In this document: positions 6,463 through 53,370 of the stretch, piece after piece | Numbering within the stretch: the first letter of the stretch is position 1 | Layout: each line of letters starts with the position of its first letter | NCBI GenBank assembly: GCA_964408705.1 | Contig: CAYPAI010000001.1 | Location: 63,750 to 127,749, forward strand | Direction of reading: 5' to 3' | Length of the DNA: 64,000 nt | From: Candidatus Woesearchaeota archaeon | GTDB lineage: Archaea > Nanobdellota > Nanobdellia > SCGC-AAA011-G17 > PNOQ01 | Notes under the pieces: model-generated | The model's input: the letters and a program-made list of their open reading frames with translations, nothing else | Databases searched by the model: none | Told to the model about the DNA's origin: nothing | Made by a program: the position numbers and the translations under genes

Positions 6463-6882
6463 ATGTCAGTTAATAAAAGAAAAAAAAATACCAGAATGCG
6501 GGCAAAAACTACCCATGGATATGGTTCTATGAAAAAAAATCGTGGAGCAGGTAATCGAGGAGGAAGGGGTCTTGCTGGAACTGGTAAAAGGGCAGATCAG
6601 AAAAAACCAACTATTTTGAAAAATTATGGTTTAGCTTATTTTGGTAAAAAAGGTTTTAAAAATCAGAGGAGAGTAGGCATAAAAAGAAAGATATTAAACC
6701 TTGATCAATTAGACTTAACTAAAAAAGAAGGAGAGTTTTATGTTTTTGATGCATCTACTTATGATAAAATATTGGGAAAGGGCACCTTAAAAAATAAAAT
6801 AAAAATTAAATGTAAATCATTTTCAAAACTAGCAATTGATAAAATAGAAAAAGCTGGCGGAGAAGCTATAATATGTTCTTAA
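6463..6882 (+). CDS. rpl15: 50S ribosomal protein L15 (uL15)
   Basis: 139 aa; Gly/Arg-rich N-terminus (GAGNRGGRGLAGTGKR) typical of L15; precedes secY. Confidence 0.8.
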   Translation: MSVNKRKKNTRMRAKTTHGYGSMKKNRGAGNRGGRGLAGTGKRADQKKPTILKNYGLAYFGKKGFKNQRRVGIKRKILNLDQLDLTKKEGEFYVFDASTYDKILGKGTLKNKIKIKCKSFSKLAIDKIEKAGGEAIICS

Positions 6883-8315
6883 AAAATTTGATGGGGTACT
6901 TACCTGAAGTAATAGGGCCTAGTCATAAACCTTCATTTAATGAAAAATTAAAATGGTCAGGGATAATGTTATTTGCTTTTTTTGCATTATCAATGATCCC
7001 TCTTTTTGCATTAGGGGAGAACTCTCTTCAACAATTTGAACAATTATCTATAATTCTTGGTGCAAGTTTTGGTTCAATAATCTCTTTAGGTATTGGACCT
7101 ATTGTAACTGCATCTATCGTCCTTCAACTTTTAACAGGTTCCGGAATTTTAAATATTGATGTTTCATCTCCAGAAGGAAAAAAATATTTTCAAGGACTTC
7201 AAAAACTATTGGCAATATTCTTTATATTCTTAGAAGGGGCTATCTATGTCCTAATGGGAGGTTTAACTCCTGCAGTCACCTTATCTCCTTCATTGTTTAA
7301 GATGGCACAACTTGTACTTATATTCCAGTTATGTTTAGGAGGATTACTTGTACTTTTCATGGATGAAGTAATATCTAAATGGGGATTTGGGTCTGGAGTC
7401 AGTTTGTTTATTGCAGCAGGAGTGTCTCAGCAAATTTTTGTAAGGGCATTTTCTCCATTAACTCAGTTAGGTACAATGGCATTTGGTTCTGGAGAATCTC
7501 CAATCGGAAGTGTATGGGTTTTACTAAGTGCCATAATGAATGCCGATTTGTTAGGTGCAGCAATGCCTTTTTTCGCAATTCTCTTTACATTAATTGTGTT
7601 TGCATTAGCAGTTTACGCACAAGCAATGAAAGTAGAGATACCTTTATCTTTCGGTAGAGTTAGGGGCCATGGTATAAGATGGCCTTTAAGATTTATATAT
7701 ACTTCAAATATTCCAGTTATTTTGGTTGCTGCATTTATGGCAAATATTCAACTTTGGGCAAGATTGATGCAAAACAAGTCTGAGGGTAGTGCAGGAGTTA
7801 TGGCATGGCTATCTGAACATTTTTTTGGACACTTTGCAGGAAGTGTACCTATTTCAGGATTAGTTTATTGGACTTATCCTCCAAACTTGGTAGAATATTT
7901 CTTAAATAGTTCCATGTCAGGATCGTGGAGCTTAGAACCTTTAACTCAAGCTTTAGTATATACTTTATTTATGGTTTCTGGTGCAGTAGTATTCTCTATC
8001 TTTTGGGTACAAACTGCAGGAATGGATGCTAAATCTCAAGCTAAAAAGATTATGTCTTCAGGATTACAAATGCCAGGATTTAGAAGAGATCCAAGAGTAT
8101 TAGAAACTGTGCTAAACAGGTACATTGGCCCTTTGACTATAATGGGGGCAATTGCTGTAGGGGCGTTAGCTGCAATTGCGGACCTAAGCGGGTCTTTAGC
8201 TAGAGGAACAGGAATTCTTTTAGCAGTAATGATAATTTATAGACTATATGAAGAAGTTGCACAACAACATATGATGGATATGAATCCAGGATTAAGAAAA
8301 ATGATGGGAGGGTAA
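6873..8315 (+). CDS. secY: Preprotein translocase subunit SecY
   Basis: 480 aa; 10-TM protein with conserved SecY segments; holds the canonical position after L15. Confidence 0.9.
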   Translation: MFLKNLMGYLPEVIGPSHKPSFNEKLKWSGIMLFAFFALSMIPLFALGENSLQQFEQLSIILGASFGSIISLGIGPIVTASIVLQLLTGSGILNIDVSSPEGKKYFQGLQKLLAIFFIFLEGAIYVLMGGLTPAVTLSPSLFKMAQLVLIFQLCLGGLLVLFMDEVISKWGFGSGVSLFIAAGVSQQIFVRAFSPLTQLGTMAFGSGESPIGSVWVLLSAIMNADLLGAAMPFFAILFTLIVFALAVYAQAMKVEIPLSFGRVRGHGIRWPLRFIYTSNIPVILVAAFMANIQLWARLMQNKSEGSAGVMAWLSEHFFGHFAGSVPISGLVYWTYPPNLVEYFLNSSMSGSWSLEPLTQALVYTLFMVSGAVVFSIFWVQTAGMDAKSQAKKIMSSGLQMPGFRRDPRVLETVLNRYIGPLTIMGAIAVGALAAIADLSGSLARGTGILLAVMIIYRLYEEVAQQHMMDMNPGLRKMMGG

Positions 8316-8349
8316 CTCTTAAAAAGAAACAAACTTCCAAAAATTAACA

Positions 8350-8790
8350 ATGGTATTAGAAAATTTTTTTCAAAACACACTAGGATGGGCAATAGAATGG
8401 TCTCCATTAGGAGGATTATTCATAGTTAGTTTCATATTAACTCTCTTAGTAACACTAGTCTATAAGTATATGACAGATCAAGAGTTACTAAAATCGATAA
8501 AACAAGAAATGAAAGAAATTAGGAAAGAAATGAAACTATTTAAGGAAGACCCGACTAAGATGATGGAGTTACAAAAAATATCCATGGAAAAGTCAATGGT
8601 CCAAATGAAAAACACTTTTAAACCAATGCTCATTACATTTATTCCACTTATACTTGTGTTTGGCTGGCTTAGAGAAGTATATGCTACACTAGAAATAAGT
8701 TTTTTAGGGATGTCCAGTTGGTTACTGATATATATTATCTTTTCAGTAATCTTCAGCGCGACTTTAAGAAAAATTTTAAAGGTACACTAA
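8350..8790 (+). CDS. DUF106/EMC3/TMCO1-like (Oxa1 superfamily) membrane protein
   Basis: 146 aa; three TM helices with an amphipathic K/E-rich coiled loop. It occupies the slot held by the DUF106 gene in archaeal spc operons, but directly after secY with no adk and with no cmk before L34e. Confidence 0.45.
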   Translation: MVLENFFQNTLGWAIEWSPLGGLFIVSFILTLLVTLVYKYMTDQELLKSIKQEMKEIRKEMKLFKEDPTKMMELQKISMEKSMVQMKNTFKPMLITFIPLILVFGWLREVYATLEISFLGMSSWLLIYIIFSVIFSATLRKILKVH

Positions 8791-8791
8791 A

Positions 8792-9055
8792 ATGCCATCA
8801 GGAAAACATAAATCAAGAACATTAAGGAGAATTTTTGTAAGAACTATTAGTGGTAATGTCACTAAACACTTCAGAAAAAGAAAATTAAAAAGAAGCTCTT
8901 GCGGAACTTGTGGTACTGCCCTAAAAGGTGTACCTAATAAAATACAATCTAAGCTTAAAAATTTATCAAAAACTAAAAAAAGACCAGAACGTCCTTTTGG
9001 GGGCGTACTTTGTTCATCATGTATGAGGAAAAAAATAATTAAGCAGGTAGAATAA
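8792..9055 (+). CDS. rpl34e: 50S ribosomal protein L34e (eL34)
   Basis: 87 aa; N-terminus SGKHKSRTLRRIFVRT and a CxxC...CxxC zinc ribbon. Confidence 0.75.
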   Translation: MPSGKHKSRTLRRIFVRTISGNVTKHFRKRKLKRSSCGTCGTALKGVPNKIQSKLKNLSKTKKRPERPFGGVLCSSCMRKKIIKQVE

Positions 9056-9056
9056 A

Positions 9057-9332
9057 ATGTTTGAAGTAGGGAGAGTTTGTGTTAAAATTGCAGGACGTGA
9101 TGCAGGTAAAACTGCAGTAGTAGTAGATAATCTGTCAGAAGAAAATATCCTTATTGATGGTAATGTTAGGAGAAGGAAATGTAATGCTAAGCATTTAGAA
9201 CCTTTAAAAGATGTGCTTAAAATTAAAAAGGGTGCTTCAACAAGTGAAGTGCACAAGGCTATGCATGCCGCAAAAATTAAGGTTGAAACAAAAACTAAAA
9301 CTAGAAAAAATAAAGGTAAAACTAAAAAATGA
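9057..9332 (+). CDS. rpl14e: 50S ribosomal protein L14e (eL14), KOW domain
   Basis: 91 aa; EVGRVCVKIAGRDAGKTAVVVD KOW pattern; basic tail. Confidence 0.7.
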   Translation: MFEVGRVCVKIAGRDAGKTAVVVDNLSEENILIDGNVRRRKCNAKHLEPLKDVLKIKKGASTSEVHKAMHAAKIKVETKTKTRKNKGKTKK

Positions 9333-9700
9333 ACGAAAAAGAAAGATTTGCAGCATTAGAACAACAAATAATTCAACAAAATTTTATGAATTTAAAAAAC
9401 CAGCTTGCTACACTTAACATGCAAACTGAAGAATTGATGAAGATAAAGGAAGATTTAATCAGTATCAAAGATATTGAAAATAGGGAAACTTTTGTGCCAA
9501 TGGGTGCAGGGATATTTTTAGAATCTGAATTGAAAAAACCAAAAGAAGTAATATTAAACGTTGGTGCAAACGTTCTAGTAAAAAAAGACTTTGATTCTGC
9601 TAAAGATATACTAACTAAACAAATCGATGAATTAAGGAATATTAAATCTCAATTAGAAAATGAATTATCTAAGATGGAGATGGGTATTCTTTCATCATAA
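9329..9700 (+). CDS. pfdA: Prefoldin alpha subunit
   Basis: 123 aa; coiled coil flanking two beta-hairpin motifs (FVPMGAGIFLES and VILNVGANVLVKKD), which distinguishes the alpha from the beta subunit. Confidence 0.55.
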   Translation: MNEKERFAALEQQIIQQNFMNLKNQLATLNMQTEELMKIKEDLISIKDIENRETFVPMGAGIFLESELKKPKEVILNVGANVLVKKDFDSAKDILTKQIDELRNIKSQLENELSKMEMGILSS

Positions 9701-9737
9701 CACATAGCTTATTAAACAATATACTACTTCCTTTCTT

Positions 9738-11048
9738 ATGACAAGTGATTTTCTTGAATACTATTCTAAAAGAGAAGTACAAAACAATATAGCCTTAAAC
9801 TGTGAAGACAGAGAACTGGCTGCTAAACTAGGTGATAAGGGTTTTTCTAAAAGACCAAATGTCCTTCAATATGGTGGAGAGGTTTTGGACTTTGTAAAGA
9901 GAGGGGCAACTTCCTTCCATATCTCCGAAGAGCATTGGAAAGATCCTTTAATGTTAGTCCCTGGCATGAACAAAAAAAATTTAGATCAATTAAGAAAAGG
10001 GTGGGATTTAATCTTAGATATAGATAGCCCTGATCTTAAAGACTCTAAGATTATAACTTACTACTTAATTGAAGCATTAAAGTTTAATGATGTTAAGAAT
10101 ATATTTGTAAAATATTCAGGAAATAAAGGATTTCATATCGCAATACCTTTTCAATCATTTCCTAGTGAAGTTAATGGAGTTCCAACTAAAGATCTTTTTC
10201 CAGAAGGACCCAGGATTGTAACTGCTTATCTCTTAAATATGATCAAACCTCATATGGAAAAAGAATTCGGAAATAAGGTTTCAGATATTTTCAAGGTAGA
10301 CACTGGTTTAATCTCCAATAGACACATGTATAGGGCGCCATACTCGCTACATGAAAAGAGTGGATTAGTTAGTGTCCCTATAGATAAGGAAGAAGTTTTA
10401 AGTTTTGATAAGGCTAAAGCATTACCAGATAGAGTAGATTCTTCTGATAAGTTTTTAGGAGACAAAATACTTGTAAAGGGTGACGCCAAAAATTTGATTC
10501 TCCAAGCATTTGACTGGAATTCTAGAAATTTAAGAAGTGAGATTAAGGAAATACCAAAAAAAGAATATAAGGATTTGGAAGAAGAAATCTTACCTTCTGC
10601 ATTTCCCCCATGCATAACAAAAGGATTAGAGCAAATGGAAGATGGTAAAAAAAGATTTTTATTTATACTTATCAATTTTCTTAAAAATACTGGATATAGT
10701 TTTGAAAAGTTGGAAGAAGTAGTAAGGACATGGAACCAAAAAAATGAAGAACCTCTTAGGGAAGGATACATCATATCTCAGTTGAATTGGCATAAGAGAC
10801 AGTCAGAAAAAGTCCTACCACCTAACTGTCCACATTCTTCTCAAAATTCTGAGATGAATTATTATAAAGACTTAGGGCTTTGTAATCCTGACCACTTGTG
10901 TTTAAAGGGTAAAAACCCTACAAATTATGCGATTAGGAAATCAATTATCTTAAAAAATAGTAATAAAAGTAAGCTTTATAAATCAGATATGAAAACTAGG
11001 TCTAATGGGAAGAATAAAGACAACAATGATAAAGAGTATAACTCTTAA
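9738..11048 (+). CDS. priS: DNA primase, PriS catalytic core fused to a C-terminal Cys-containing helical (PriL-CTD-like) domain
   Basis: 436 aa. Archaeo-eukaryotic primase motifs are present: LILDIDSPD (DxD), YSGNKGFHIAIPF (SGxRGxH) and RHMYRAPYSLHEKSG. The C-terminal ~170 aa are helical and carry four Cys (PPCITKG, NCPHS, GLCNPDHLC). Confidence 0.75.
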   Translation: MTSDFLEYYSKREVQNNIALNCEDRELAAKLGDKGFSKRPNVLQYGGEVLDFVKRGATSFHISEEHWKDPLMLVPGMNKKNLDQLRKGWDLILDIDSPDLKDSKIITYYLIEALKFNDVKNIFVKYSGNKGFHIAIPFQSFPSEVNGVPTKDLFPEGPRIVTAYLLNMIKPHMEKEFGNKVSDIFKVDTGLISNRHMYRAPYSLHEKSGLVSVPIDKEEVLSFDKAKALPDRVDSSDKFLGDKILVKGDAKNLILQAFDWNSRNLRSEIKEIPKKEYKDLEEEILPSAFPPCITKGLEQMEDGKKRFLFILINFLKNTGYSFEKLEEVVRTWNQKNEEPLREGYIISQLNWHKRQSEKVLPPNCPHSSQNSEMNYYKDLGLCNPDHLCLKGKNPTNYAIRKSIILKNSNKSKLYKSDMKTRSNGKNKDNNDKEYNS

Positions 11049-11190
11049 ACTTTTTAAGGAAAATCCTGATAAATTTAAAAAAGAATTTTCAGAAAATAAA
11101 AAAATTGTTAAAGACTTGGTTAGTGCTAAATCTAAAAAATTAGAGAATATTATAGCAGGATACATGACCAGGTTAGCCAAACAAAATTAA
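11005..11190 (+). CDS. rps17e: 30S ribosomal protein S17e (eS17)
   Basis: 61 aa; MGRIKTTMIKS...KKLENIIAGYMTRL matches the S17e N-terminus (MGRVRTKTVK...AGYVTHL). It overlaps the primase 3' end in another frame. Confidence 0.75.
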   Translation: MGRIKTTMIKSITLKLFKENPDKFKKEFSENKKIVKDLVSAKSKKLENIIAGYMTRLAKQN

Positions 11191-11218
11191 ATTTTAGATA
11201 TTCCTTAACATATTCAAG

Positions 11219-11572
11219 ATGACTGAAAAAGACTTAAAACCCGAAGATAATTCTAAGGACAACTTAGATAGTATAACTAATGTTGAAAAAGATAATAATA
11301 TTGTTTTTATAGGTGGGAAGCCCTTTATGAATTATGTAACTGGAGTAGTCATGCAATTTACAACTCAAAATGCAAGCGAGATTATAATCAAGGCTAGAGG
11401 AAAATTTATATCTAGGGCAGTTGATGTTGCAGAAGTTGCAAGTAGAAGATTTTTAGAAAATACTTGTAAAATAAAAGATATTATGATAGATAGTGAAGAA
11501 TTCCAAAATAAAGAAGGAAAAAGAGTTAGAGTTTCTACTATTGAAATAATATTATCTAAAAAACTAGGTTAA
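11219..11572 (+). CDS. albA: DNA/RNA-binding protein Alba
   Basis: 117 aa; Alba core (NIVFIGGKPFMNYVTGVVMQF...ASEIIIKARGKFISRAVDVAEV...STIEIIL). Confidence 0.8.
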   Translation: MTEKDLKPEDNSKDNLDSITNVEKDNNIVFIGGKPFMNYVTGVVMQFTTQNASEIIIKARGKFISRAVDVAEVASRRFLENTCKIKDIMIDSEEFQNKEGKRVRVSTIEIILSKKLG

Positions 11573-33566: not shown

Positions 33567-35888
33567 CTAACCACAACAACATCTTATTCCACAATCAAAA
33601 GGTCCATAACAATAATCATCCCCCCAATCATCAAAATCTGTATTACACCCCAGAGGATATTGTACTTCAAATTGGCAAAGATCATAATAATTAGTTGCCT
33701 CATACCAATATGACATATCATGATTACAACTATCTGGCGAGTTTCCTCCGTAATACTTCCATCCTCCGCCTGATTGATCTACGTCTCCCATCATATACCA
33801 CCAGTTTATATAATTACCCCATTGACAGTTGTCTTGGCAATTAAGTCCTTTACTTTGGCAGAACTCCTCACAATTTCCTTCATTTAATTCGTCCTGGTTA
33901 CAATCATGCTCAAAAGTGAACGGAGTTTGTTCCCCATGATGATCATACAATTGTCCTCCTGGATAAGGTGCAGAGCCATCTGGACAATGAGGATAACCGT
34001 CTTCTTGATCACCATTCCAATCACAATCATAAACTTCTGAGTCTTGTGTTCCTTCTGGATAAGTAGAATAACTTACTGGCCATCCTTGATGCTCATGACA
34101 ATTGTTTGGCCAGTTTCCCCAAGTTGAACTCCATCCGCACTCGCTATGGCATACTTCATACCAATTATTCCCAGATAATTCACAACCAGGCCCTCCCCAT
34201 TCGGCATCTCCATTACAAACTCCTGCGCAGTCAAATTCTCCAAACCCTCCACACTCTCCCGTGCAATCTGATTGGGAGTTTCCACCACAAGTCCCTGTAC
34301 AGTCTATTTCTAATCCTCCTCCGCACTGTCCTGAACAGTCTGCCCAAACATCTCCTTCTACTTCACAAACACAACTACCATGCTGGTTAGTATTTACTCC
34401 ATCTCCATTACATACTCCACAATCATCCCTTTCTGAAGATCCTCCACAAACTCCAAAACAATCTTGTTCTGCATTGCCCCCACACTGTCCTGAACAGTCT
34501 GCCCAAACATCTCCTTCTACTTCACAAACACAACTACCATGCTGGTTAGTATTTACTCCATCTCCATTACATACTCCACAATCATCTATTTCGGCTGAAC
34601 CTGCACAAATACCAAAACAATCTTGTTCTGAATTACCCCCACATTGTCCTGCACAATCTACTTCTGTGTCTCCGTCACACACGCCTGCACAATCTTCACA
34701 GCTAGAGTGGCAACTATCAAGATAATATCCACAAAAGCCACATTCATCTAGCACTTTAGTTCCCCCACAAACTCCTGCACAATCTACTTCCTGTGTACAT
34801 TCTCCATCGCAATCATACTGATTGTCTGGATAGTTCTCAGGGTATATGCAACTTGTTGATGTTGTTGCAGTATTTTGATAATTACACCCATCTTCATCAG
34901 TGCATCCTGAATAAGTTGTATGGAAGCAATTACCCCATTCCGTAGGAATTTGTGACCCAGTAGTATCTGAAATAATTCTGGCATTGTTATTGTCAAAACA
35001 AACCTCAGAACCTATCGAACTATACTCAATTTCTAAAATTAATTGTGTTTCTTTATTTATTGTTAGTTCAGACGATCCACACTCTATACAATCGGCAGGT
35101 ATAACTTGACCACTTATTGAAAATGCGAGAACCATAGGATTTCCTGCTTTAGAAGATATTATAAAATCATTCTCCTCAACACTCCCTCCTGACACATCTT
35201 CTAATTCAAGTCCTTCAACATTAAATTGTATTCCTGCGACATTCGTATTGCTAGTCATATAAACCTTTATTTTTTTGTTGATTGTATCTACTTCTAGTAT
35301 TTCAACTTTCGCAGCAGGTTCAGTCCTTAGTGGGTCTTCTTCTGGAAAGTTTGCATCCACATTCGTGCCAGTGTAAAGAACAGGATCTAAAACATCATAC
35401 ACAGACAATGCCTCTGCATCTGCATAGTGGTCACAAATCCAAGTTTCGCCCTGGTGATGACCATACCTTATACAATTTGCCATTTTAATGTACCAAGGGG
35501 TACCTCCTCCTCCACTTTCTTCACAATCACAAGTCTCGCAATTCATACACTCATCTTGGCCATTTACGTTGCAAGAATTACAACAAACACAATTACTTCC
35601 CAGATTTGCACCCACTATCCCTTTAGGTTTTTCAACAAAACAATCTTCACCTTTAAATTCGTGTGGTCCAAATCTTTCCCAACCTTTGCACGAAATTCCT
35701 TTCTTTATTAATTCAAATGAAGAAGGCGCATTACCTTGGATCCTATCTATCTCTAAACTTATACGTTCAACAATTCTTTGGACAGCATTATCTCTGGGGT
35801 CTTGAGATTGCCTAGAAAACTCGGTACATCCTGAAATAAATAAAATACTGATTAATAATAAACTTAAAACTAAATTACCTCTTTTCAT
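33567..35888 (-). CDS. Large secreted/surface Cys-rich repeat protein with cohesin-like domain (putative lipoprotein)
   Basis: 773 aa; signal peptide with lipobox-like ISGC. Dozens of CxGxCGG...DxCGVCNGDG Asp-rich, Ca-binding-like repeats. The central segment resembles a cohesin/Ig-like beta-sandwich (VEILEVDTINKKIKVYMTSNTNVAGIQFNVEGLELEDV). More than 100 Cys in total. Confidence 0.6.
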   Translation of the reverse strand: MKRGNLVLSLLLISILFISGCTEFSRQSQDPRDNAVQRIVERISLEIDRIQGNAPSSFELIKKGISCKGWERFGPHEFKGEDCFVEKPKGIVGANLGSNCVCCNSCNVNGQDECMNCETCDCEESGGGGTPWYIKMANCIRYGHHQGETWICDHYADAEALSVYDVLDPVLYTGTNVDANFPEEDPLRTEPAAKVEILEVDTINKKIKVYMTSNTNVAGIQFNVEGLELEDVSGGSVEENDFIISSKAGNPMVLAFSISGQVIPADCIECGSSELTINKETQLILEIEYSSIGSEVCFDNNNARIISDTTGSQIPTEWGNCFHTTYSGCTDEDGCNYQNTATTSTSCIYPENYPDNQYDCDGECTQEVDCAGVCGGTKVLDECGFCGYYLDSCHSSCEDCAGVCDGDTEVDCAGQCGGNSEQDCFGICAGSAEIDDCGVCNGDGVNTNQHGSCVCEVEGDVWADCSGQCGGNAEQDCFGVCGGSSERDDCGVCNGDGVNTNQHGSCVCEVEGDVWADCSGQCGGGLEIDCTGTCGGNSQSDCTGECGGFGEFDCAGVCNGDAEWGGPGCELSGNNWYEVCHSECGWSSTWGNWPNNCHEHQGWPVSYSTYPEGTQDSEVYDCDWNGDQEDGYPHCPDGSAPYPGGQLYDHHGEQTPFTFEHDCNQDELNEGNCEEFCQSKGLNCQDNCQWGNYINWWYMMGDVDQSGGGWKYYGGNSPDSCNHDMSYWYEATNYYDLCQFEVQYPLGCNTDFDDWGDDYCYGPFDCGIRCCCG
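34300..34700. repeat. Near-identical tandem direct repeat (~157-bp unit, ~2.5 copies) inside the Cys-rich protein gene
   Basis: Two ~110-bp blocks (about 34326-34437 and 34483-34590) are almost identical (ctgtcctgaacagtctgcccaaacatctccttctacttcacaaacacaactaccatgctggttagtatttactccatctccattacatactccacaatcatc). A partial third copy follows. Confidence 0.7.
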
Positions 35889-36468: not shown

Positions 36469-37221
36469 CTAATTTATTTGAAAAATTATCCATTTATAGA
36501 AAATAGATACTAAGATTAAAAAATAAACTAGATTATAACCCCAAAGCAGGTTATGTTTGAATGGTAAAAAGGCATATGCAAATACCATAATCAATGCCAT
36601 ACCTAAACTTAATAAAAAATATACCAAGTAATTTCCATAAACATAATCTAAGGCGTGTTCTTTCATATCTATGCAGTTTTCTGTCAAACATACTTTAGTT
36701 TGTTCTTGTCCTTCCAGGTCAGTTATAGTGTATGTACTCATGCCTTGAACATAAACCCCTACTAGAAACGTTCCAAATAGGATAAATGCCCCTATAAAAA
36801 AGAAAGATGTGTGTTTGATCACTGAACTTATATCCATCTTTTGGATTAGTTTTTCTTGTGGATTTTCTTCTTTGCCTTGGTTTATAACTGGAAATTTTGC
36901 TTTTTTAAATACACTATCTACTTTTTCTTTCTTCCATCCCTTAACTGACAATGCAAGCCTTATCTGGCTTTCACTTATTCCTTTTTTAAGAGAACTGTTT
37001 ACAAAATTTAGTAATGGTTCTTTTTCTTCTATTATCTTCTTATTTTTAGGGTTTAGCCTAAATTTATTTTTCTCTAAGAATCTATATGCAGAATTTACGT
37101 CTTCTCTTGACCAGCCATTTTCTAGTAAAATCTTTATTAATTCTTCTTTTTTATATCCTCTTTTTTGATTTTCCTTAATATAACTGACTAGTTGAAGATT
37201 AACCATTAATTTATTTTTCAA
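36469..37221 (-). CDS. Membrane protein with two N-terminal ~35-aa repeats
   Basis: 250 aa; repeats GYKKEELIKILLENGWSREDVNSAY and GISESQIRLALSVKGWKKEKVDSVF, then 3-4 TM helices. Confidence 0.4.
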   Translation of the reverse strand: MKNKLMVNLQLVSYIKENQKRGYKKEELIKILLENGWSREDVNSAYRFLEKNKFRLNPKNKKIIEEKEPLLNFVNSSLKKGISESQIRLALSVKGWKKEKVDSVFKKAKFPVINQGKEENPQEKLIQKMDISSVIKHTSFFFIGAFILFGTFLVGVYVQGMSTYTITDLEGQEQTKVCLTENCIDMKEHALDYVYGNYLVYFLLSLGMALIMVFAYAFLPFKHNLLWGYNLVYFLILVSIFYKWIIFQIN

Positions 37222-38141: not shown

Positions 38142-38645
38142 TTGAATGATATTGTACGTAGATCCAATATCTTAACTAAGAAAAGAAGAAGAAAGATAAA
38201 TCTGGATAACTTGATATCAGATATAGATAATATCAGATTTGTTGTACTTTATCAAAAACACATAAACACCTTCGGTATAAACAGTGTTAAAGTTCCAGTA
38301 GTTACCAAATTAATAAACTCTTACAACAATAAGATAGACATAGAAAAAACAAAAATTATAGTTGATGGGTCTCCCCCTCCTTCAGTAAATGAAGATATTC
38401 ATTTTGTCTTATCTAAAACATATGGAAAAAACCTTTCGAGGTCACAAATACAGTTTATAGATGAAGCAGACAAATACTATAACATTGTAAATGTTGCAGA
38501 TAGTATCGCTTATCAGTTAAATAAAGCATATTCTGATGTAATTGAAGGCAAAGGGGGTCCTTTTGAAGAAAAGAGAGTAAACTTTGATCTGGTTTGTGAT
38601 TCCAAGCCCAGTAGAAAACAAAAATATCTTAGAAAAATATTATAA
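38142..38645 (+). CDS. Candidate divergent RNase HII; the ORF probably extends upstream to about 38028 with a non-ATG start
   Basis: The ORF as given starts at TTG. The in-frame upstream sequence encodes HYGIGIDESNHGRTPEIYVSAL, resembling the RNase HII N-terminal catalytic motif (GIDEAGRGPVIGPLV). Further similarity: TKKRRRKI (cf. DSKKLSPKRRE) and DEADKYYNIVNVADSIAYQLNKA (cf. ADAKYPVVSAASIIAK). The extended length of ~206 aa fits RNase HII. Confidence 0.4.
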   Translation: MNDIVRRSNILTKKRRRKINLDNLISDIDNIRFVVLYQKHINTFGINSVKVPVVTKLINSYNNKIDIEKTKIIVDGSPPPSVNEDIHFVLSKTYGKNLSRSQIQFIDEADKYYNIVNVADSIAYQLNKAYSDVIEGKGGPFEEKRVNFDLVCDSKPSRKQKYLRKIL

Positions 38646-39476: not shown

Positions 39477-40316
39477 GTGTATTTGGTGAAAAAATACTTA
39501 GATAAACTTGAAATTGAATTAAAATTGAGGGGTTTTTCAAAAAGAACCCTCAATACATATTTTACCAATGTTAGATTATTTCTTAACCAATTAACTAAAA
39601 ATCCTGAAGAAACCACTGAAGATGATATAAAATTATATTTTGCAAACCTTATTGCCAATAACCTGTTAAGTCCTAGGTCCATTGCAGTAAAGAAAGCATC
39701 CTTAAAATTTTTTTATGAAGAAGTTTTAGGTAAAAAGATAATTAATCTGAAAACACCCAAAATACCTAAATCTATCCCTGTGTTTTTAACAAAGGATGAA
39801 ATTAAGAAATTGTTTATTGCTTCTTCTTCTAAAAAATCTCTTTTGATCATGAAATTACTTTATTCTACAGGGTTACGTGTAAGCGAATGTGTAAATCTAA
39901 AAACATCTGATTTAGAAATTGAAGAAGGAGTGGGGTGGGTTAGAAGAGGTAAGGGTGATAAAGATAGGGCCATATTCTTTCCAAAATCACTAGGCCGTGA
40001 CTTAAATAAGTATATCCAAACTTTATCTGAAACTGAGCAATATTTGTTTCCTGGAGGGGATAAGGGACACTTATCTACTAGAAACATACAAAAAATAATA
40101 AATTTGGCTGCAAAAAAGGCAAAAATCCCTAAAAGAGTGACTGCACATAAACTAAGACATAGTTTTGCTACCCATAATTTAGATAAGGGGGTAGACATAA
40201 GGATTATCCAAGAGTTATTAGGACATTCAGATCTATCTACGACTCAGATATATACTCATGTTTCCAAGGAACAGTTAAAAAAAGTAAAAAATGTACTTGA
40301 TGAGTTAGAATATTAG
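39477..40316 (+). CDS. xerA: Tyrosine recombinase, XerC/XerD/XerA-like (site-specific integrase)
   Basis: 279 aa; GTG start. N-terminal SAM-like core-binding domain; C-terminal catalytic R...HxLRH...Y region (HKLRHSFATHNLDKGVDIRIIQELLGHSDLSTTQIYTHV). Confidence 0.8.
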   Translation: MYLVKKYLDKLEIELKLRGFSKRTLNTYFTNVRLFLNQLTKNPEETTEDDIKLYFANLIANNLLSPRSIAVKKASLKFFYEEVLGKKIINLKTPKIPKSIPVFLTKDEIKKLFIASSSKKSLLIMKLLYSTGLRVSECVNLKTSDLEIEEGVGWVRRGKGDKDRAIFFPKSLGRDLNKYIQTLSETEQYLFPGGDKGHLSTRNIQKIINLAAKKAKIPKRVTAHKLRHSFATHNLDKGVDIRIIQELLGHSDLSTTQIYTHVSKEQLKKVKNVLDELEY

Positions 40317-46559: not shown

Positions 46560-47022
46560 ATTTAATTTATCTAGTATTTAAATATATTGTTAAGGTACTA
46601 CCCCCTCACCTACTTTTCAAATGGAAATCCTATATTTTTTAGATTTTGATTTTTTTCCCTTGGAAAATGTCTAATCTTTTCTTGATTTTATGTATTTTTT
46701 TAAGGATATATCGTCTATAAAACTTGAATATTTTTTTTATTTATTTTTTTAAAGTATTTCTTAACTAGAAGCCGTAATATACCATTATTTTTAAGAATTG
46801 ATATTTTTGTTTTTAAATTTTAATTTATATGTTTTATTATTATATTATATTTATATTGTAATTTATATTTTTTATACTGTTACTACTTTTTAGTTTCCAA
46901 AAGAAAAGTAGGTGTTTAGTTTGAGGATGTTGTTATTTTTTGTTTCCACAGGAAATATAGGCCTCAGGGTATATTTCATAATATGAAAATTCTTAAATAA
47001 TAATTTTGAGTAAACTTTCAGA
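46560..47022. other. Predicted chromosomal replication origin (oriC) with ORB-like dyads and AT-rich DUE
   Basis: A 460-bp noncoding region directly upstream of orc1/cdc6. Perfect dyads TTTTCC-CTT-GGAAAA (46653-46667) and TTTCC-ACA-GGAAA (46943-46955), matching the archaeal mini-ORB core (TTCCAnnGGAAA). Half-site GTTTCCAAAAGAAAAG at 46893-46908. A ~150-bp stretch of more than 90% A+T lies between them (46735-46890). Confidence 0.5.
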
Positions 47023-48231
47023 ATGGTAAAGGAAGACATAAGTGGTTTTTTTGAAGAATATCTTTCTAAAGAATCTATTTTTAAAAATAAAAAAGTTTTA
47101 CAATTTAGCCATACCCCTGACAACATCCCCCACAGAGAAGAGCAAATAAAAGAGATTGCATCAATTCTTGCACCTTCATTAAGAGGTGAAAAACCTTCCA
47201 ACCTTTTCTTATATGGTAAAACTGGTACAGGTAAGACACTTTCAATGTTTCATGTTATCAAGAATTTGGAAAAAATTGCAAAAACCAAAAAAATAGGTTT
47301 AAAAGTTTTTTATCTGAACTGTAAACTAAAACGAGTTGCAGATACAGAATATAGATTAATTGCTGCACTTGCGAGAGATTTTGGTGAAGATGTTCCAATT
47401 ACAGGATTACCCACTGATGAGATATACAGGATATTTATGGAAAGGATAGATAGAAAAGAGATGAATTTAATTTTAGTTTTGGATGAGATTGATCAACTAG
47501 TCAAAAAAGCAGGAGATGAAATATTATATAACCTTACTAGGATAAACTCCGAATTAAAAAAAACACAAATAACTGTAGTTGGAATATCTAACGATCTGCA
47601 ATTTGCTAATTATTTGGACCCAAGGGTTAAATCTTCCTTAACTGAAGAAGATATCAACTTCCCATCATATAATGCATTACAATTGCAAGACATCCTATCA
47701 GAAAGGGCCAAGTCTGCCTTCAAAAGTAAAGTAGTTGAAGAAGGAGTTATAAGTAAATGTGCAGCTTATGCTGCGAGGGAACATGGGGATGCAAGAAGGG
47801 CATTAGATTTACTAAGAGTTGCAGGAGAGTTGGCTGAAAGAAATAATGAAAGCAAGCTTAAGATAGATTTTATTGATAATGCTGAAGAAAAAATAGAGAG
47901 AGATTTAATATATGATGTCATAAAAACATTACCAAAACAGTCTCAAGCAACACTTCTTGCAATTTTTAAGTTGAACCGAGACTCACAAGATAAGATTTTA
48001 ACAGGAGATGTTTATGAAACTTACAAGTCTTATTGTATTGCTTCAGGTCTAAAAACACTAACTCAAAGAAGGCTATCTGATCTTATTGCAGAGTTAGATT
48101 TATTGGGAATAATTAATGCGAGAGTTGTTAGCAAAGGAAGATATGGAAGGACAAGGGAAATAAAGTTGGCAGTGCCACAAACTAATTTACCTTCATTAAA
48201 TAAGGAGTTAAAAGGATGGTTGGGACTGTAA
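47023..48231 (+). CDS. cdc6: Orc1/Cdc6 replication initiator
   Basis: 402 aa; AAA+ Walker A (LFLYGKTGTGKT), Walker B (LVLDEID) and a C-terminal winged helix. Confidence 0.9.
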   Translation: MVKEDISGFFEEYLSKESIFKNKKVLQFSHTPDNIPHREEQIKEIASILAPSLRGEKPSNLFLYGKTGTGKTLSMFHVIKNLEKIAKTKKIGLKVFYLNCKLKRVADTEYRLIAALARDFGEDVPITGLPTDEIYRIFMERIDRKEMNLILVLDEIDQLVKKAGDEILYNLTRINSELKKTQITVVGISNDLQFANYLDPRVKSSLTEEDINFPSYNALQLQDILSERAKSAFKSKVVEEGVISKCAAYAAREHGDARRALDLLRVAGELAERNNESKLKIDFIDNAEEKIERDLIYDVIKTLPKQSQATLLAIFKLNRDSQDKILTGDVYETYKSYCIASGLKTLTQRRLSDLIAELDLLGIINARVVSKGRYGRTREIKLAVPQTNLPSLNKELKGWLGL

Positions 48232-49853
48232 ATGAAAAAATAACTAACCTCCTGAAGAAAGGATTTTTAGTTGGTCCAGATTTAATTAAGGAGTTAGAGG
48301 ATCCAAACTTAGATACATTAAGTGACATACCTTATGAAGATCGGCCTTCAGTAATAACAAAAGACATCCATGATTATTTTTTAAAAAAACCAAATAAAAT
48401 AAATATCTCTTGGAAGGATTTTGAAAAAGCAAGAGTTAATTTTGAAAAAGGCAAAGATAAGAAAACCTATCCTTCCTTGCTAAAGTTAACAAATTATAAA
48501 GATAATAAGGAAAAGTTAGACAAGCTCTTGAGTGAAGTTAAAAAACCAGTTAAGCCCATTATATCTCTTGAGAAAAATCCTTCTACTGTTCCAATTGTTT
48601 TGAGGAATTATACAGATAAAAAAACAAAGATTAATGTTAATACTTTTGTTGAACATTATAAACTAAGATATAACTTCTTGAGGAAACTGTTACAGGCCAG
48701 GCAAGACCTGAGTGGTGCAGTGTCTATAGATAGATTGAACCATCGGCGTAAAGGAGATAAAGTTTCTACAATTGGGATGGTCTATTCTAAAGAATATACA
48801 AAAAATAAGCACCTCCTCCTTGAAATAGAAGATATTACTGGTAGGGTAAAATGTTTAGTTATGAATTCTAAAAAAGATCTTTTTGAACTTTCTAAAGATA
48901 TTGTGTGTGATGAAGTGATAGGGTTGAAAGGGACAGCAGGAGATGGCCTAATATTTATTGAAAATGTTTATTTTCCAGATGTTCCTGCCGGAGAAATTAT
49001 TAAAAAAGGGCAGAAGGAAGAATATATAGCATTTATTTCAGATATCCAAATAGGTTCCAAAAAATTTCTTAAGAAGAGTTTTATGAGATTTATAGACTGG
49101 ATAAATGGAGAATATGGTTCAAAGGAACAAAAAGAAGAAGCATTAAAAATAAAATACTTGTGTGTAGTTGGAGATGTTGTAGATGGAGTAGGAATATATC
49201 CAGGACAAGAATCAGATTTAGAGATAAAAGATATTTATGATCAATATAAGGAGTGTGCAAATGTTTTTTCAAAGATAAGGAAAGACATACACATAATTAT
49301 ATCTCCAGGGAACCATGATGCCGTCAGATTGGCAGAACCTCAACCTGTTTTTGAAAGAAGCATGTCGGAGGATTTGTGGGAAATGGAAAATGTAACTCTT
49401 GTTACTAATCCGGCAACAGTTAATGTGGGGGCGACGGAAACATTTGAAGGACTTGATGTATTGATGTACCACGGATTTAGTTTTGATTTTTATGTAGATT
49501 ATTTAGATAATATACGGAACAAGGGGGGTTATGACAGCATTTGTGTTTTAATGAAGATGTTGCTACAAAAGAGACACCTAGCACCAACTCACACATCAAA
49601 TCTTTCAGTGATAGATCCTGAAGAAGATTATATGGTAATAGAAGATATACCCGATATTTTTGTTACAGGTCATGTGCACAAGGCAAAAATAGACCAATAT
49701 GGTAAGACTACACTAATTAATAGCAGCTGTTGGCAAGCTAAGACAGACTACGAGGAGAAGTTAGGACATACTCCTGAGCCAGCAAGAGTTGCAATAATTA
49801 ATATGAAAACAAGGGAGACAAAATTTATGAAATTTTTAGTAGAAGATGAATGA
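48216..49853 (+). CDS. dp1: DNA polymerase D small subunit (DP1, 3'-5' exonuclease)
   Basis: 545 aa; OB fold plus calcineurin-like phosphoesterase motifs (GDVVDGVG, GNHDA, GHVH). Confidence 0.85.
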   Translation: MVGTVNEKITNLLKKGFLVGPDLIKELEDPNLDTLSDIPYEDRPSVITKDIHDYFLKKPNKINISWKDFEKARVNFEKGKDKKTYPSLLKLTNYKDNKEKLDKLLSEVKKPVKPIISLEKNPSTVPIVLRNYTDKKTKINVNTFVEHYKLRYNFLRKLLQARQDLSGAVSIDRLNHRRKGDKVSTIGMVYSKEYTKNKHLLLEIEDITGRVKCLVMNSKKDLFELSKDIVCDEVIGLKGTAGDGLIFIENVYFPDVPAGEIIKKGQKEEYIAFISDIQIGSKKFLKKSFMRFIDWINGEYGSKEQKEEALKIKYLCVVGDVVDGVGIYPGQESDLEIKDIYDQYKECANVFSKIRKDIHIIISPGNHDAVRLAEPQPVFERSMSEDLWEMENVTLVTNPATVNVGATETFEGLDVLMYHGFSFDFYVDYLDNIRNKGGYDSICVLMKMLLQKRHLAPTHTSNLSVIDPEEDYMVIEDIPDIFVTGHVHKAKIDQYGKTTLINSSCWQAKTDYEEKLGHTPEPARVAIINMKTRETKFMKFLVEDE

Positions 49854-52800
49854 TTTAAATAAATATGATGAAGGCATAGATAAAAAAGTTAAAAAAGCAT
49901 ATGATCTTGCTAAATCTGCAAAGTTAAAAAGAATAGATCCTTCGGAGCGGATCGAAATACCTTTAGCTAAAAACATGGCAGAGAGGGTTGAAGGTTTGAT
50001 AGGTGTTGCTGCACCTCAAATAGTTGGGAAAGGCCTACCCCAAAGAATAGAACAATTAGAAAAAGAAAATGGGAAGTTGGATTGGAGAGTCGGATTAAAA
50101 ATAGCATACGAAGTTGCTAGTGAAAAATTTTGTAAATTTGAAGATAAAAAAGAAGCAATAGAGGTTGGTATAAGAGTGGGGTTTGCTTATGTTACTGTAG
50201 GAGTTGTAGCAAGCCCTTTAGAAGGTTTTACTGGGATAAAGATTAGAAAGAGAAAGGATGGAAAGGAATATCTTGCATTGTGCTACGCAGGGCCGGTAAG
50301 GAGTGCAGGAGGTACTGCTGCCTCTGTTTCGGTATTAATAGCAGATTATTTAAGAAAAAAAATGGACTATTCTAAGTATGATCCAACTCCTGAAGAGGTG
50401 AAGAGGGCAGTAATAGAGTTAACAGATTATCATGAGAGGATAACAAATTTACAATATTTTCCTAGTCCTGAAGAAATTGAGAACATGGTTTCAAATTTAC
50501 CTGTTCAAATAGATGGGGATCCGACCGAAAAGTTGGAAGTTTCAAACCACAAAGATTTGGATAGGATTGAAACCAATAGGATAAGAGGTGGTTTTTGTTT
50601 AGTGTTGGGGGAGTGCCTTTGCCAAAAGGCAAAGAAAGTAAATAAACAACTAGAAGATTGGGGAGACGAGTTAGGAATGGGAGATTGGGATTTTATGCAT
50701 TCTTTTTGTAAAATTCAAACAAAATTAAAAGCAAAAGAAAAAGGTATACAAGATTCAACTGAAAAAATTTCACCAGACTTTACTTTCATAAAAGATATTG
50801 TTGCAGGAAGGCCCGTTTTAACATACCCTTTGAGAGAAGGTGGATTTAGATTAAGATATGGGCGTTCGAGAACTACTGGGCTTAGCTCAGTGGCTATACA
50901 CCCTTTAACTATGAAGATCCTTAATAATTACATTGCAATAGGTACTCAACTCAAAATGGAGAGGCCAGGAAAAGGAACTGCCTTAAGTTCTTGTGATTCA
51001 ATAGAAGGCCCAATTGTAAGATTAGACAACGGGGAAGTTATTTTTTTAAAAGAAGAAGACTATGATAAATTTAAAAATAACATAGATAAGATCTTGTTTT
51101 TAGGAGACATATTAATTCCCTATGGAGATTTTTTGAATAGAGCACATGTGTTAGTCCCTCCAGGGTATTGTGAAGAATGGTGGATAAAAGAAATAAAAAA
51201 TAAAAAAAGATCCCCTCAAGAGTTAGAAGTTGAAACAAAGATTAACCTTTCATTGTTGAAACAACTATACAATGACCCTATAAAAACAAATATTTCTGTA
51301 AAAGATTCTTTTACTATTTCTGAAAAGTTGGGAGTCCCGTTTCACCCAAAATATACATTCCATTGGAAAGATATCTCTGTAAAAGAATTATTAATCCTTT
51401 TGAGCAAAGTTATAAAATCTACTATAAAACGAGGAGAGGAGTTTAAATTAATTTTTCCACTACATGAAGAAGAATTAGAAAAACATATTTCTCTTAAAAA
51501 GATTCTTGAAAAAGTAGGCGTTCCTCATAAATTAGTTTCTAATGAATATTTAATAATTGAAAAAGAATGGGCAGAGTCTTTTTTGGTAAATCTTGGATTG
51601 TACAAAGAGGGGGCTGATTTAAAAAAAACCATAGAAGAAATAGATACTTCTAATGAAGTTTTACAAATAATAAATAATCTTTCTGAAATAAAAATAAGGG
51701 ATAAATCTGGAGTTTTCGTTGGTGCAAGAATGGGTAGGCCTGAAAAGGCAAAAATACGTAAATTAAAAGGTAGCCCCCACGTATTGTTTCCAGTAGGTAA
51801 TGAAGGGGGTAGATTAAGATGTTTCCAATCTGCATTGGAGAAAGGAAAAATTAATGCAGAGTTTCCCCTCAAACATTGTGAAAAGTGCGATATAGAGACA
51901 GTATATCCTTCTTGTCAAACTTGTAAAAATAAAACTACTCCAAGATATTATTGTAGACTTTGTAAAAAGGTTTTAAGCGAAGAGGTTTGTCCAAACCATG
52001 GAAAAGGGACAAACTATAATTTTAGGAGTATAAATATTTCTGAGTATTATTCTAGTTCTTTAAAAAAGCTAGGAATAAACAATTCTCCCGATTTAGTAAA
52101 GGGTGTGAGGGGAATGTCTAGTGATAGCAAAGATGTTGAAAATTTGTCTAAAGGATTACTTAGGGCAATACACAATATTCATGTAAACAAAGATGGTACA
52201 GTTAGGTATGATATGACGGAATTAGCATTAACACACTTTAAACCTAAGGAAGTTGGAACTAGTGTAGAAAAATTAATTAAACTGGGATATACTAAAGATG
52301 TTTTAGGAAAAGAATTAACCGACGAAGACCAAATTTTACAAATTTATCCTCAAGATGTTATTTTGCCTTCATGCGAAGAATCAAATGAAGAAGGTTGCGA
52401 TTCAATAATGTATAGAGTTTCTAAGTTTGTAGATGATTTATTGAAACATGTTTATGGGTCAAGTCCATTCTATGAGTTAAAATCTAAATCAGATCTAGTT
52501 GGTCACCTTGTTATAAGTCTTGCACCTCACACTTCTGCAGGAGTGGTAGGAAGGATAATAGGTTTTTCAAAAACCCAAGGAGGTTATGCTAGTCCGATTT
52601 GGCATTGTGCTCAAAGAAGAGATTGCGATGGAGATGAGTGCGGGATCATGTTGTTAATGGATGGTTTATTAAATTTTTCAAGGAAGTATTTACCAGGTCA
52701 CAGGGGTGCAACTCAAGATGCCCCGCTTGTGCTAACTTCAAAAGTTATCTTAACTGAAGTTGATGATATGGTTTTTGATATGGATACTGAATGGGAGTAT

Positions 52801-53370
52801 CCTCTCGAATTTTATGAAGCATGTGAAGAGTATAAGATGCCATGGGACATTAAAATAAAAAAAATAGGTGACAATCTTGAAAATTTTGGAGAATTTATAA
52901 TTGGATATACTCACGAAACAGATAACTTAAACGATGGAGTAAGATATAGTGCCTATAAGCAAATTCCAACGATGCAAGAGAAAGTTCTTGGCCAGATGGA
53001 TCTTGCCGAAAAAATAAGGGCAGTTGATGAAGATGATGTTGCAAGACTAGTAATAGACCGGCATTTCATCAGAGACATAAAAGGTAATCTTAGGAAGTTT
53101 AGTATGCAGGAGTTTAGATGTGTGGCTTGTAATACAAAATATAGGAGGACACCTCTTAATGGAAAGTGCACTAATTGCAAGGGCAAACTTATTTTTACTA
53201 TTTCAGAAGGTAGTGTTACAAAATATTTGATGCCTTCATTACAACTTGCAGAAAAATATAATCTTCCAGAATATACTTCCCAAACTTTAGACTTACTTAA
53301 AAGAAGAATAGAGAGTTTTTTTGGAAAAGAAGAAGACAGGCAAGAAGGGTTAAGTAGGTGGGTTCTTTGA
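49846..53370 (+). CDS. dp2: DNA polymerase D large subunit (DP2)
   Basis: 1174 aa; conserved DP2 segments and Cys clusters (CEKCDIETVYPSCQTC, CRLCKK...CPNHG, CVACNTK...CTNCKG). No intein. Confidence 0.85.
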   Translation: MNDLNKYDEGIDKKVKKAYDLAKSAKLKRIDPSERIEIPLAKNMAERVEGLIGVAAPQIVGKGLPQRIEQLEKENGKLDWRVGLKIAYEVASEKFCKFEDKKEAIEVGIRVGFAYVTVGVVASPLEGFTGIKIRKRKDGKEYLALCYAGPVRSAGGTAASVSVLIADYLRKKMDYSKYDPTPEEVKRAVIELTDYHERITNLQYFPSPEEIENMVSNLPVQIDGDPTEKLEVSNHKDLDRIETNRIRGGFCLVLGECLCQKAKKVNKQLEDWGDELGMGDWDFMHSFCKIQTKLKAKEKGIQDSTEKISPDFTFIKDIVAGRPVLTYPLREGGFRLRYGRSRTTGLSSVAIHPLTMKILNNYIAIGTQLKMERPGKGTALSSCDSIEGPIVRLDNGEVIFLKEEDYDKFKNNIDKILFLGDILIPYGDFLNRAHVLVPPGYCEEWWIKEIKNKKRSPQELEVETKINLSLLKQLYNDPIKTNISVKDSFTISEKLGVPFHPKYTFHWKDISVKELLILLSKVIKSTIKRGEEFKLIFPLHEEELEKHISLKKILEKVGVPHKLVSNEYLIIEKEWAESFLVNLGLYKEGADLKKTIEEIDTSNEVLQIINNLSEIKIRDKSGVFVGARMGRPEKAKIRKLKGSPHVLFPVGNEGGRLRCFQSALEKGKINAEFPLKHCEKCDIETVYPSCQTCKNKTTPRYYCRLCKKVLSEEVCPNHGKGTNYNFRSINISEYYSSSLKKLGINNSPDLVKGVRGMSSDSKDVENLSKGLLRAIHNIHVNKDGTVRYDMTELALTHFKPKEVGTSVEKLIKLGYTKDVLGKELTDEDQILQIYPQDVILPSCEESNEEGCDSIMYRVSKFVDDLLKHVYGSSPFYELKSKSDLVGHLVISLAPHTSAGVVGRIIGFSKTQGGYASPIWHCAQRRDCDGDECGIMLLMDGLLNFSRKYLPGHRGATQDAPLVLTSKVILTEVDDMVFDMDTEWEYPLEFYEACEEYKMPWDIKIKKIGDNLENFGEFIIGYTHETDNLNDGVRYSAYKQIPTMQEKVLGQMDLAEKIRAVDEDDVARLVIDRHFIRDIKGNLRKFSMQEFRCVACNTKYRRTPLNGKCTNCKGKLIFTISEGSVTKYLMPSLQLAEKYNLPEYTSQTLDLLKRRIESFFGKEEDRQEGLSRWVL

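Follow-up and report, generated by a model that had tools for sequence, protein, structure and literature searches.

A predicted single-chain PriS-PriL primase in a Woesearchaeota-type archaeon and the absence of its Fe-S cysteines from some relatives

A 64,000-nucleotide stretch of contig CAYPAI010000001.1, assigned to a Candidatus Woesearchaeota archaeon (assembly GCA_964408705.1), was analyzed and is referred to here as the window. It contains a gene for a DNA primase in which a PriS-type catalytic core is fused to a PriL-type C-terminal domain (CTD) on one chain. The product is very probably a monomeric replicative primase and the orthologue of NEQ395 of Nanoarchaeum equitans; its host is an archaeon of the Woesearchaeota type (DPANN cluster 2). 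A fused primase is ordinary for this lineage, and the fusion, the Fe-S site and their phylogenetic meaning have all been published already. According to PMC3914693, the fusion was first noted in N. equitans by Iyer et al. in 2005. Nanohaloarchaea and Parvarchaeota were added by Raymann et al. in 2014 (PMC3914693), and Dombrowski et al. (2020) found it in all cluster 2 DPANN and described it as a synapomorphy of Undinarchaeota and DPANN cluster 2 (PMC7414124). The study of NEQ395 by Schneider, Bergsch and Lipps (2023) detected no other archaeo-eukaryotic primase (AEP) domain in the N. equitans genome and reported the fusion in numerous other DPANN (PMC10250227). The initial annotation of the window, made from the DNA letters, had named fused primases of Nanoarchaeum and other DPANN lineages, and these three papers bear it out. 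One finding alone was less expected, namely that relatives of the primase have lost the Fe-S ligands repeatedly on a rough tree.

The two halves of the protein were identified with Pfam. PF01896 (DNA_primase_S) matched residues 94-216 with 27.9 bits (gathering score 26.8) and PF04104 (DNA_primase_lrg) matched residues 267-399 with 26.0 bits (gathering score 22.4), the latter covering profile positions 87-227 of 266. The presence of both families above their gathering scores on one chain upholds the earlier description of the gene as a PriS core fused to a PriL domain. The third Pfam match, LigD_Prim-Pol (PF21686), was below threshold (23.0 against a gathering score of 27.4). The top NCBIfam matches, all of them weak, were to PriS, PriL and LigD models only. 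When a family profile was compared with all PDB sequences, the only chains with E-values below 0.01 were PriS and PriL.

The catalytic motifs of the AEP core, motif I (DxD), motif II (sxH) and motif III (hD), are intact. The three strings listed in the initial annotation, DIDSPD, SGNKGFH and RAPYSLHEKSG (residues 199-209), are indeed present in the open reading frame (ORF), although that list omitted D188 (in FKVD), which supplies the AEP fold with its third catalytic acid. The nucleotide-binding segment is RAPYSLHEKSG, and its counterpart in an alignment with human PriS is KSPFSVHPKTG; the longer segment RHMYRAPYSLHEKSG aligned with human PriS NHLLKSPFSVHPKTG. Conservation was evaluated in two sets. 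From more than 3,299 homologues, the best 120 were aligned; a collection with one genome per species held at least 593 genomes with a relative of the primase, the best 80 of which were examined. Residues D94, D96, S127, H133, D188, H196 and R199 are invariant in the 120 homologues and the 80 species genomes, whereas K130 of motif II varies in both sets. H61 is kept in all but two of the 80 species genomes, every one of which has [K/R]304, K305, R306 and F309.

The primase's C-terminal part has exactly four cysteines, C292 (FPPC), C364 (NCPHS), and C382 and C388 (GLCNPDHLC), as first pointed out in the initial annotation. The only other cysteine, C22, is the single one in residues 1-291 and is unrelated and non-conserved. 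In the phmmer alignment with Pyrococcus abyssi PriL (9F26_B), the primase segment LPSAFPPCITKGL lies opposite LRPDLFPPCVKNAL, and LPPNC...GLCNPDHLCLKGKNPTNYAIRK lies opposite FPPNC... All four cysteines coincide with cysteines of P. abyssi PriL, the last three within the pattern PPNC...LC.PD..C. This one-to-one correspondence of aligned residues supports the earlier proposal that they could form the Fe-S site of a PriL CTD, and the four are homologous to its cluster ligands.

The full-length protein was modelled with AlphaFold2 (AF2) from an alignment of 87 homologues, and the mean predicted local distance difference test score (pLDDT) was 87.5. The model has a mixed alpha/beta N-terminal domain with pLDDT mostly above 90, a linker helix, and an all-helical CTD. 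Helices in the C-terminal part were predicted at residues 251-270, 291-298, 304-316, 322-335, 342-354, 375-378, 386-390, 394-407 and 413-419. Between the first two lies a hinge of low confidence (residues 271-290), where pLDDT dips to about 55 at residues 271-280. The CTD modelled alone had a pLDDT of 88.0. The initial annotation had described the C-terminal residues, about 170 in number, as helical. The helical character was confirmed by the model, but the PriL-like domain proper comprises about 130 residues (291-420), follows a linker of about 45 residues, and the remainder of that segment is linker and disordered tail. An unrelated fold for the C-terminal domain, which the initial annotation had named, together with a separate priL, as counter-evidence, is excluded.

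The closest characterized relative is NEQ395, an active monomer that primes de novo (PMC10250227). Both proteins are single chains of about 400 residues with an AEP/PriS domain, a long linker helix with a hinge, and a PriL Fe-S domain. Residues D87 and D89 of NEQ395 correspond by spacing to D94 and D96 of motif I, and S119, K122 and H125 to S127, K130 and H133 of motif II. K122, described as "less conserved" (PMC10250227), is thus the variable position K130. Residues D194, H202 and R205 correspond to D188, H196 and R199, and the D-8-H-3-R spacing is identical. In the CTD, the offsets from C289 to R301, R303 and F306 of NEQ395 are the same as those from C292 to K304, R306 and F309 of the primase (+12, +14 and +17 in both). 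The four cysteines are found at 289, 364, 376 and 384 in NEQ395 and at 292, 364, 382 and 388 in the primase. NEQ395 has a helix at residues 251-280 and a protease-sensitive hinge at 281-288, which compare with the helix at 251-270 and the stretch of low pLDDT at 271-290 of the model. There are also differences. The primase is 43 residues longer, in part owing to its disordered Lys/Asn-rich tail; the spacing of the second, third and fourth cysteines is 18/6 rather than 12/8; and motifs II and III are 55 rather than 69 residues apart. NEQ395 comes from a hyperthermophile, whereas the primase comes from an AT-rich (~31% GC) Woesearchaeota-type genome of environmental metagenomes.

Mutagenesis of NEQ395 (PMC10250227) gives these correspondences their functional meaning. 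No activity was left in D87A+D89A, H125A, D194A, H202A and R205A, and the residues shown to be essential also include H58 and S119. Priming was lost and elongation kept in R301A, R303A and F306A. The PriL domain was needed in cis for initiation, not for elongation, and there was no trans complementation of the domains. Shortening of the linker altered primer length. The primers are about 9-10 nt long and are started preferentially at triplets with a central T. NEQ395 is brown, absorbs at 410 nm, and binds a [4Fe-4S] cluster through C289, C364, C376 and C384; single cysteine mutants lost the absorbance and the cluster, and activity was kept in vitro. Counterparts of the essential NEQ395 residues are present in the primase at the matching spacing (H61, S127, H133, D188, H196, R199, K304/R306 and F309), together with four predicted cysteine ligands, a helical linker and a flexible hinge.

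Because matching residues occur at the same relative spacing, the same mechanism is proposed for the primase. The N-terminal AEP domain would be the RNA-polymerizing unit, with D94, D96 and D188 holding the catalytic divalent metals. By analogy with the NEQ395 mutants, H133, S127, H196, R199 and H61 would position the elongating nucleoside triphosphate (NTP). The helical PriL-type CTD would supply the initiation site, in which K304, K305 and R306 together with F309 may contact the template junction and either the initiating NTP or the primer's 5'-triphosphate end, as suggested by the R301, R303 and F306 mutants of NEQ395. The two domains would act in cis through the helical linker and the flexible hinge, and the linker may be a tether that limits primer length. 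Residues C292, C364, C382 and C388 are predicted to ligate a [4Fe-4S] cluster that would stabilize or regulate the CTD.

The primase was also compared with the canonical PriS-PriL heterodimer (P. abyssi 9F26/9F28, human 4RR2). The DxD, sxH and hD motifs of the AEP core are shared, as are the helical C-terminal domain of PriL and its cysteine pattern FPPC ... PPNC ... C ... C. However, the canonical enzyme is encoded by two genes and the primase by a single ORF, from which three elements are missing: the PriL N-terminal domain (PF04104 positions 87-227 only), the zinc motif of PriS and its C-terminal domain. Between the AEP and Fe-S domains, a covalent linker of about 45 residues takes the place of the interface between PriS and the PriL N-terminal domain. 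The protein is therefore not a canonical PriS or PriL, and the absence of these three elements agrees with the minimal primase that the initial annotation had inferred.

Several observations weigh against identification of the protein as a replicative primase of the NEQ395 type. The NCBIfam scores are far under their cut-offs, 17-28 bits for the PriS equivalogs compared with cut-offs of 143-577 and 20 compared with 214.7 for TIGR02778, so that similarity to canonical PriS and PriL is marginal at the sequence level. A whole-protein phmmer search of the PDB gave only a 31-residue match to PriS (E ~0.03), the family profile did slightly better, and phmmer and profile E-values against the PDB are only in the range of 1e-2 to 3e-4. 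In the predicted structure, the N-terminal domain is closest not to PriS but to the bacterial Prim-PolC and LigD polymerase domains (PolDom). A Foldseek search with the CTD model gave no significant match; the Sulfolobus subunit PriX came first (E 0.3-0.6), followed by the Fe-S domain of yeast PriL. The residue equivalences with NEQ395 rest on spacing and family conservation, not on a direct alignment. Finally, the search for other primase genes covered only 64 kb. Its outcome, however, favors the identification: two hidden Markov models (HMMs), one for each half of the primase family (N-terminal and C-terminal), recovered no second PriS- or PriL-like sequence among the six-frame ORFs of the window (next best E-values 0.22 and 0.64), and no separate priS or priL was found in Pfam scans of 49 other ORFs of the window.

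The low NCBIfam scores also account for the public record. Copies of the gene are mostly labelled "hypothetical protein" or are unnamed since the scores for PriS and PriL fall far under the cut-offs, and current annotation pipelines would therefore leave the primase unnamed. The present analysis supplies a functional name and adds an orthologue of the characterized minimal primase NEQ395 from an AT-rich genome of non-thermophile type.

The Fe-S cysteines are not universal in the family. All four are kept in 69 of the 120 closest homologues, and they are invariant within this cysteine-retaining subfamily; the primase of the window belongs to a cysteine-retaining clade. Five homologues lack the third cysteine only, which may reflect misalignment of a loop. 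In the other 46 (~38%), three or four cysteines were lost together, with the recurring patterns CYLV, DYLT, EYNQ and SFKM at the four positions. The catalytic and initiation residues are all kept in these 46 proteins. All but one contain 0-4 cysteines over their entire length, and two have none. On a quick neighbour-joining tree, the cysteine-free proteins formed three separate clades (Fitch count 3). The set lies among homologues P0010-P0120 and includes the nearest species-level relatives (L001-L004, L006, L007, L010 and L011), in which every catalytic and initiation residue is kept. These relatives also have the primase at the same position, SecY ... prefoldin, primase, S17e, except for L003, the contig of which is short upstream.

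No mention of naturally Fe-S-free DPANN primases was found in the literature searched. We regard it as evenly balanced whether, within the Woesearchaeota radiation, the four cysteines were lost together in three clades of this rough tree with retention of the catalytic and initiation residues and of gene position, and whether the PriL Fe-S cluster is, provided that these proteins are the sole replicative primases of their hosts, dispensable in vivo. If so, the primase and its cysteine-free orthologues would be a ready-made pair for comparing a cellular primase with and without the cluster. The loss of the ligands bears on the long-running debate over the role of the primase [4Fe-4S] cluster, and it concerns the relatives, not the gene of the window.

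One alternative would give the four cysteines a role in zinc binding or in disulfides, or none with metals at all, and make the CTD a cluster-free helper resembling PriX. Like PriX (Sulfolobus solfataricus, 4WYH and 5OF3 chain C), the homologues in the sister clades are devoid of ligands. However, PriX is a separate subunit, and the primase keeps all four cysteines, each paired with a cluster ligand of P. abyssi PriL and each invariant where the set is retained. They are lost together rather than singly, as would be expected if they share one cofactor site. Moreover, NEQ395, which has the same four-cysteine pattern, is brown and absorbs at 410 nm, and this absorbance disappears in its single cysteine mutants (PMC10250227). 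A cluster-free CTD in the primase of the window is thus very unlikely.

A second alternative is that the protein is a repair-type AEP of the LigD PolDom or Prim-PolC kind, acting in gap filling or end joining, and that replicative priming is carried out by a canonical PriS/PriL or an archaeal DnaG encoded elsewhere. The full-length model matched PDB entries through its N-terminal domain only. Polymerase domains of bacterial Prim-PolC and LigD ranked first (E 3e-8 to 1e-6), closely followed by PriS of Xenopus, human, yeast, Pyrococcus (P. furiosus and P. abyssi) and Sulfolobus (S. solfataricus), with E-values of 5e-7 to 6e-5. The target template modelling (TM) score of the AEP core was about 0.6 on Prim-PolC/LigD and 0.35-0.47 on canonical PriS. 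The better overall superposition on the compact cores of 5OP0, 6SA0 and 2IRU likely reflects an AEP core without the zinc and helical insertions of PriS. The sub-threshold LigD_Prim-Pol match, the presence of that name as a precomputed label on many homologues, and the confinement of the primase-gene search to the window also favor a repair enzyme. On the other hand, PF21686 and TIGR02778 are below their thresholds and PF01896 is above its own, and neither Ku nor a ligase was found among the window ORFs scanned against Pfam. The bacterial repair polymerases lack a PriL domain, and a fused Fe-S domain of the PriL type is a feature of priming enzymes specifically. The fused gene is present in all cluster 2 DPANN according to surveys (PMC7414124), and NEQ395, which primes de novo, comes from a genome in which no other AEP domain is detected (PMC10250227). 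A role in repair instead of priming is consequently most unlikely.

A mobile-element primase-polymerase of the pRN1 ORF904, RepB' or PolpTN2 type, replicating a plasmid or virus rather than the chromosome, is scarcely credible, given a chromosomal location in a ribosomal-protein/SecY cluster whose arrangement close relatives share, the absence of helicase, integrase or capsid genes next to the primase, the presence of all four PriL cysteines, and the occurrence of relatives in at least 593 species genomes. In pRN1 ORF904, RSF1010 RepB' and pTN2 PolpTN2, as in the primase, a single polypeptide links an AEP domain with a helical domain for initiation, and RepB' shares the long connecting helix. 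They differ in being plasmid-borne and in using PriCT or other helix-bundle domains, whereas the primase is a chromosomal, syntenic housekeeping gene. PolpTN2 has a PriL-like domain, yet no sequence similarity to the DPANN fusions (PMC3914693).

The distribution of the NEQ395-type primase agrees with the host. The best 120 homologues are full-length, mostly about 390-450 residues, and come from sources named Woesearchaeota, Nanoarchaeota or "archaeon". Most span about 91% of the query and lack the Lys/Asn-rich tail. In the species-genome collection, a search with the single protein found no relative and an alignment-based search did; the relative in the closest genome is only 57% identical. 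Among the best 80 species relatives, most are labelled Woesearchaeota, Nanoarchaeota or Nanoarchaeia, and about 20 carry other metagenome-assembled genome (MAG) labels. This is consistent with the earlier remark that the fused primase supports the lineage assignment. The window also contains the archaeal genes for PolD DP1/DP2, Orc1/Cdc6, L34e and S17e. Its source is a DPANN cluster 2 (Woesearchaeota-type) archaeon, within the group (Undinarchaeota or DPANN cluster 2) to which the fusion belongs. Independent gene finders predicted the identical 436-residue protein on 16 public metagenome contigs, the largest of them in the 0.2-1 Mb size class, and its neighborhood was always the same. The cluster representative P0001, listed as 100% identical, showed two differences from the primase in the alignment, I160N and M173K.

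As a whole, the window (~31% GC) is an ordinary piece of archaeal chromosome, and the coordinates of the primase features are collected in Table 1. Around the primase, the genes are arranged as SecY, an EMC3/YidC-like insertase, L34e, L14e, prefoldin alpha, primase, S17e, Alba and a Kef-type exchanger, and the primase lies at the end of the ribosomal-protein/SecY cluster (window 6873-11572). The order SecY ... prefoldin, primase, S17e, Alba is kept in most relatives above about 48% identity. The locus is another case of archaeal replication genes embedded among translation genes. No mobile-element genes adjoin the primase, and nothing nearby suggests a mobile element. Judging from the sequence, the element TTATTAAA may be an archaeal promoter, in which case the leader of the primase transcript would be short or absent.

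Table 1. Features of the fused primase gene and its immediate surroundings (window positions)
Feature	Position	Strand	Basis or remark
TATA-box-like element TTATTAAA	9709..9716	+	29 nt 5' of primase ATG; direct reading of sequence
Fused PriS-PriL(CTD) primase gene, complete	9738..11048	+	ATG to TAA, uninterrupted ORF, 436 aa plus stop
N-terminal AEP/PriS-type catalytic domain, aa 1-245	9738..10472	+	PF01896, AF2, Foldseek
AEP motif I DIDSPD, residues 94-99; D94 and D96 predicted metal ligands	10017..10034	+	Conservation, NEQ395 spacing
AEP motif II SGNKGFH, residues 127-133 (S127, K130, H133)	10116..10136	+	Conservation, NEQ395 spacing
AEP motif III V187-D188 and nucleotide-binding segment RHMYRAPYSLHEKSG (H196, R199)	10296..10364	+	Conservation, human PriS alignment
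Inter-domain linker, aa 246-290: helix 251-270, then low-confidence flexible stretch	10473..10607	+	AF2
All-helical homologue of the PriL C-terminal (Fe-S) domain, aa 291-420	10608..10997	+	
C292 (FPPC), predicted first [4Fe-4S] ligand	10611..10613	+	P. abyssi PriL alignment, conservation
K304-K305-R306-F307-L308-F309, predicted site for initiating nucleotide and 5' primer end	10647..10664	+	Conservation, NEQ395 offsets
N363-C388 segment with C364, C382 and C388, predicted second to fourth [4Fe-4S] ligands	10824..10901	+	
Disordered Lys/Asn-rich tail, aa 421-436, and stop codon	10998..11048	+	pLDDT <50
rps17e	11005-11190		S17e Pfam match; 5' end shared with primase tail, 44 nt (11005-11048)

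Other genes of the window include those for FEN1, PolB, Cdc48, topoisomerase IA, SerRS, XerA, ArgRS and Orc1/Cdc6, as well as PolD DP1 and DP2, PAN, Hef and a RadB-like protein. At 46607-46914, a very AT-rich stretch of 266 nt is enclosed by an inverted repeat of 21 nt, CACCTACTTTTCAAATGGAAA / TTTCCAAAAGAAAAGTAGGTG (86% complementary). This region is found directly upstream of orc1/cdc6 (47023-48231), and the genes for PolD DP1/DP2 follow at 48216-53370. The layout resembles that of origin recognition box (ORB) elements around an unwinding region, and 46607-46914 is a probable replication origin.

A 773-residue ORF on the minus strand (33567-35888), which has no Pfam match, starts with a signal/lipobox-like sequence (LFISGC) and contains 73 cysteines (9%) and repeated DCxGxCGG / DDCGVCNGDG modules. 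It adjoins tRNA-Lys where the GC content of the window is highest (GC 0.40) and is probably a secreted or surface protein. The ORFs at 36469-37221 (-), 38142-38645 (+) and 58710-59483 (-), of 167-257 residues, likewise gave no Pfam match at E <=0.01. The XerA-type tyrosine recombinase is encoded at 39477-40316, amid several short unannotated ORFs (38.1-43.4 kb).

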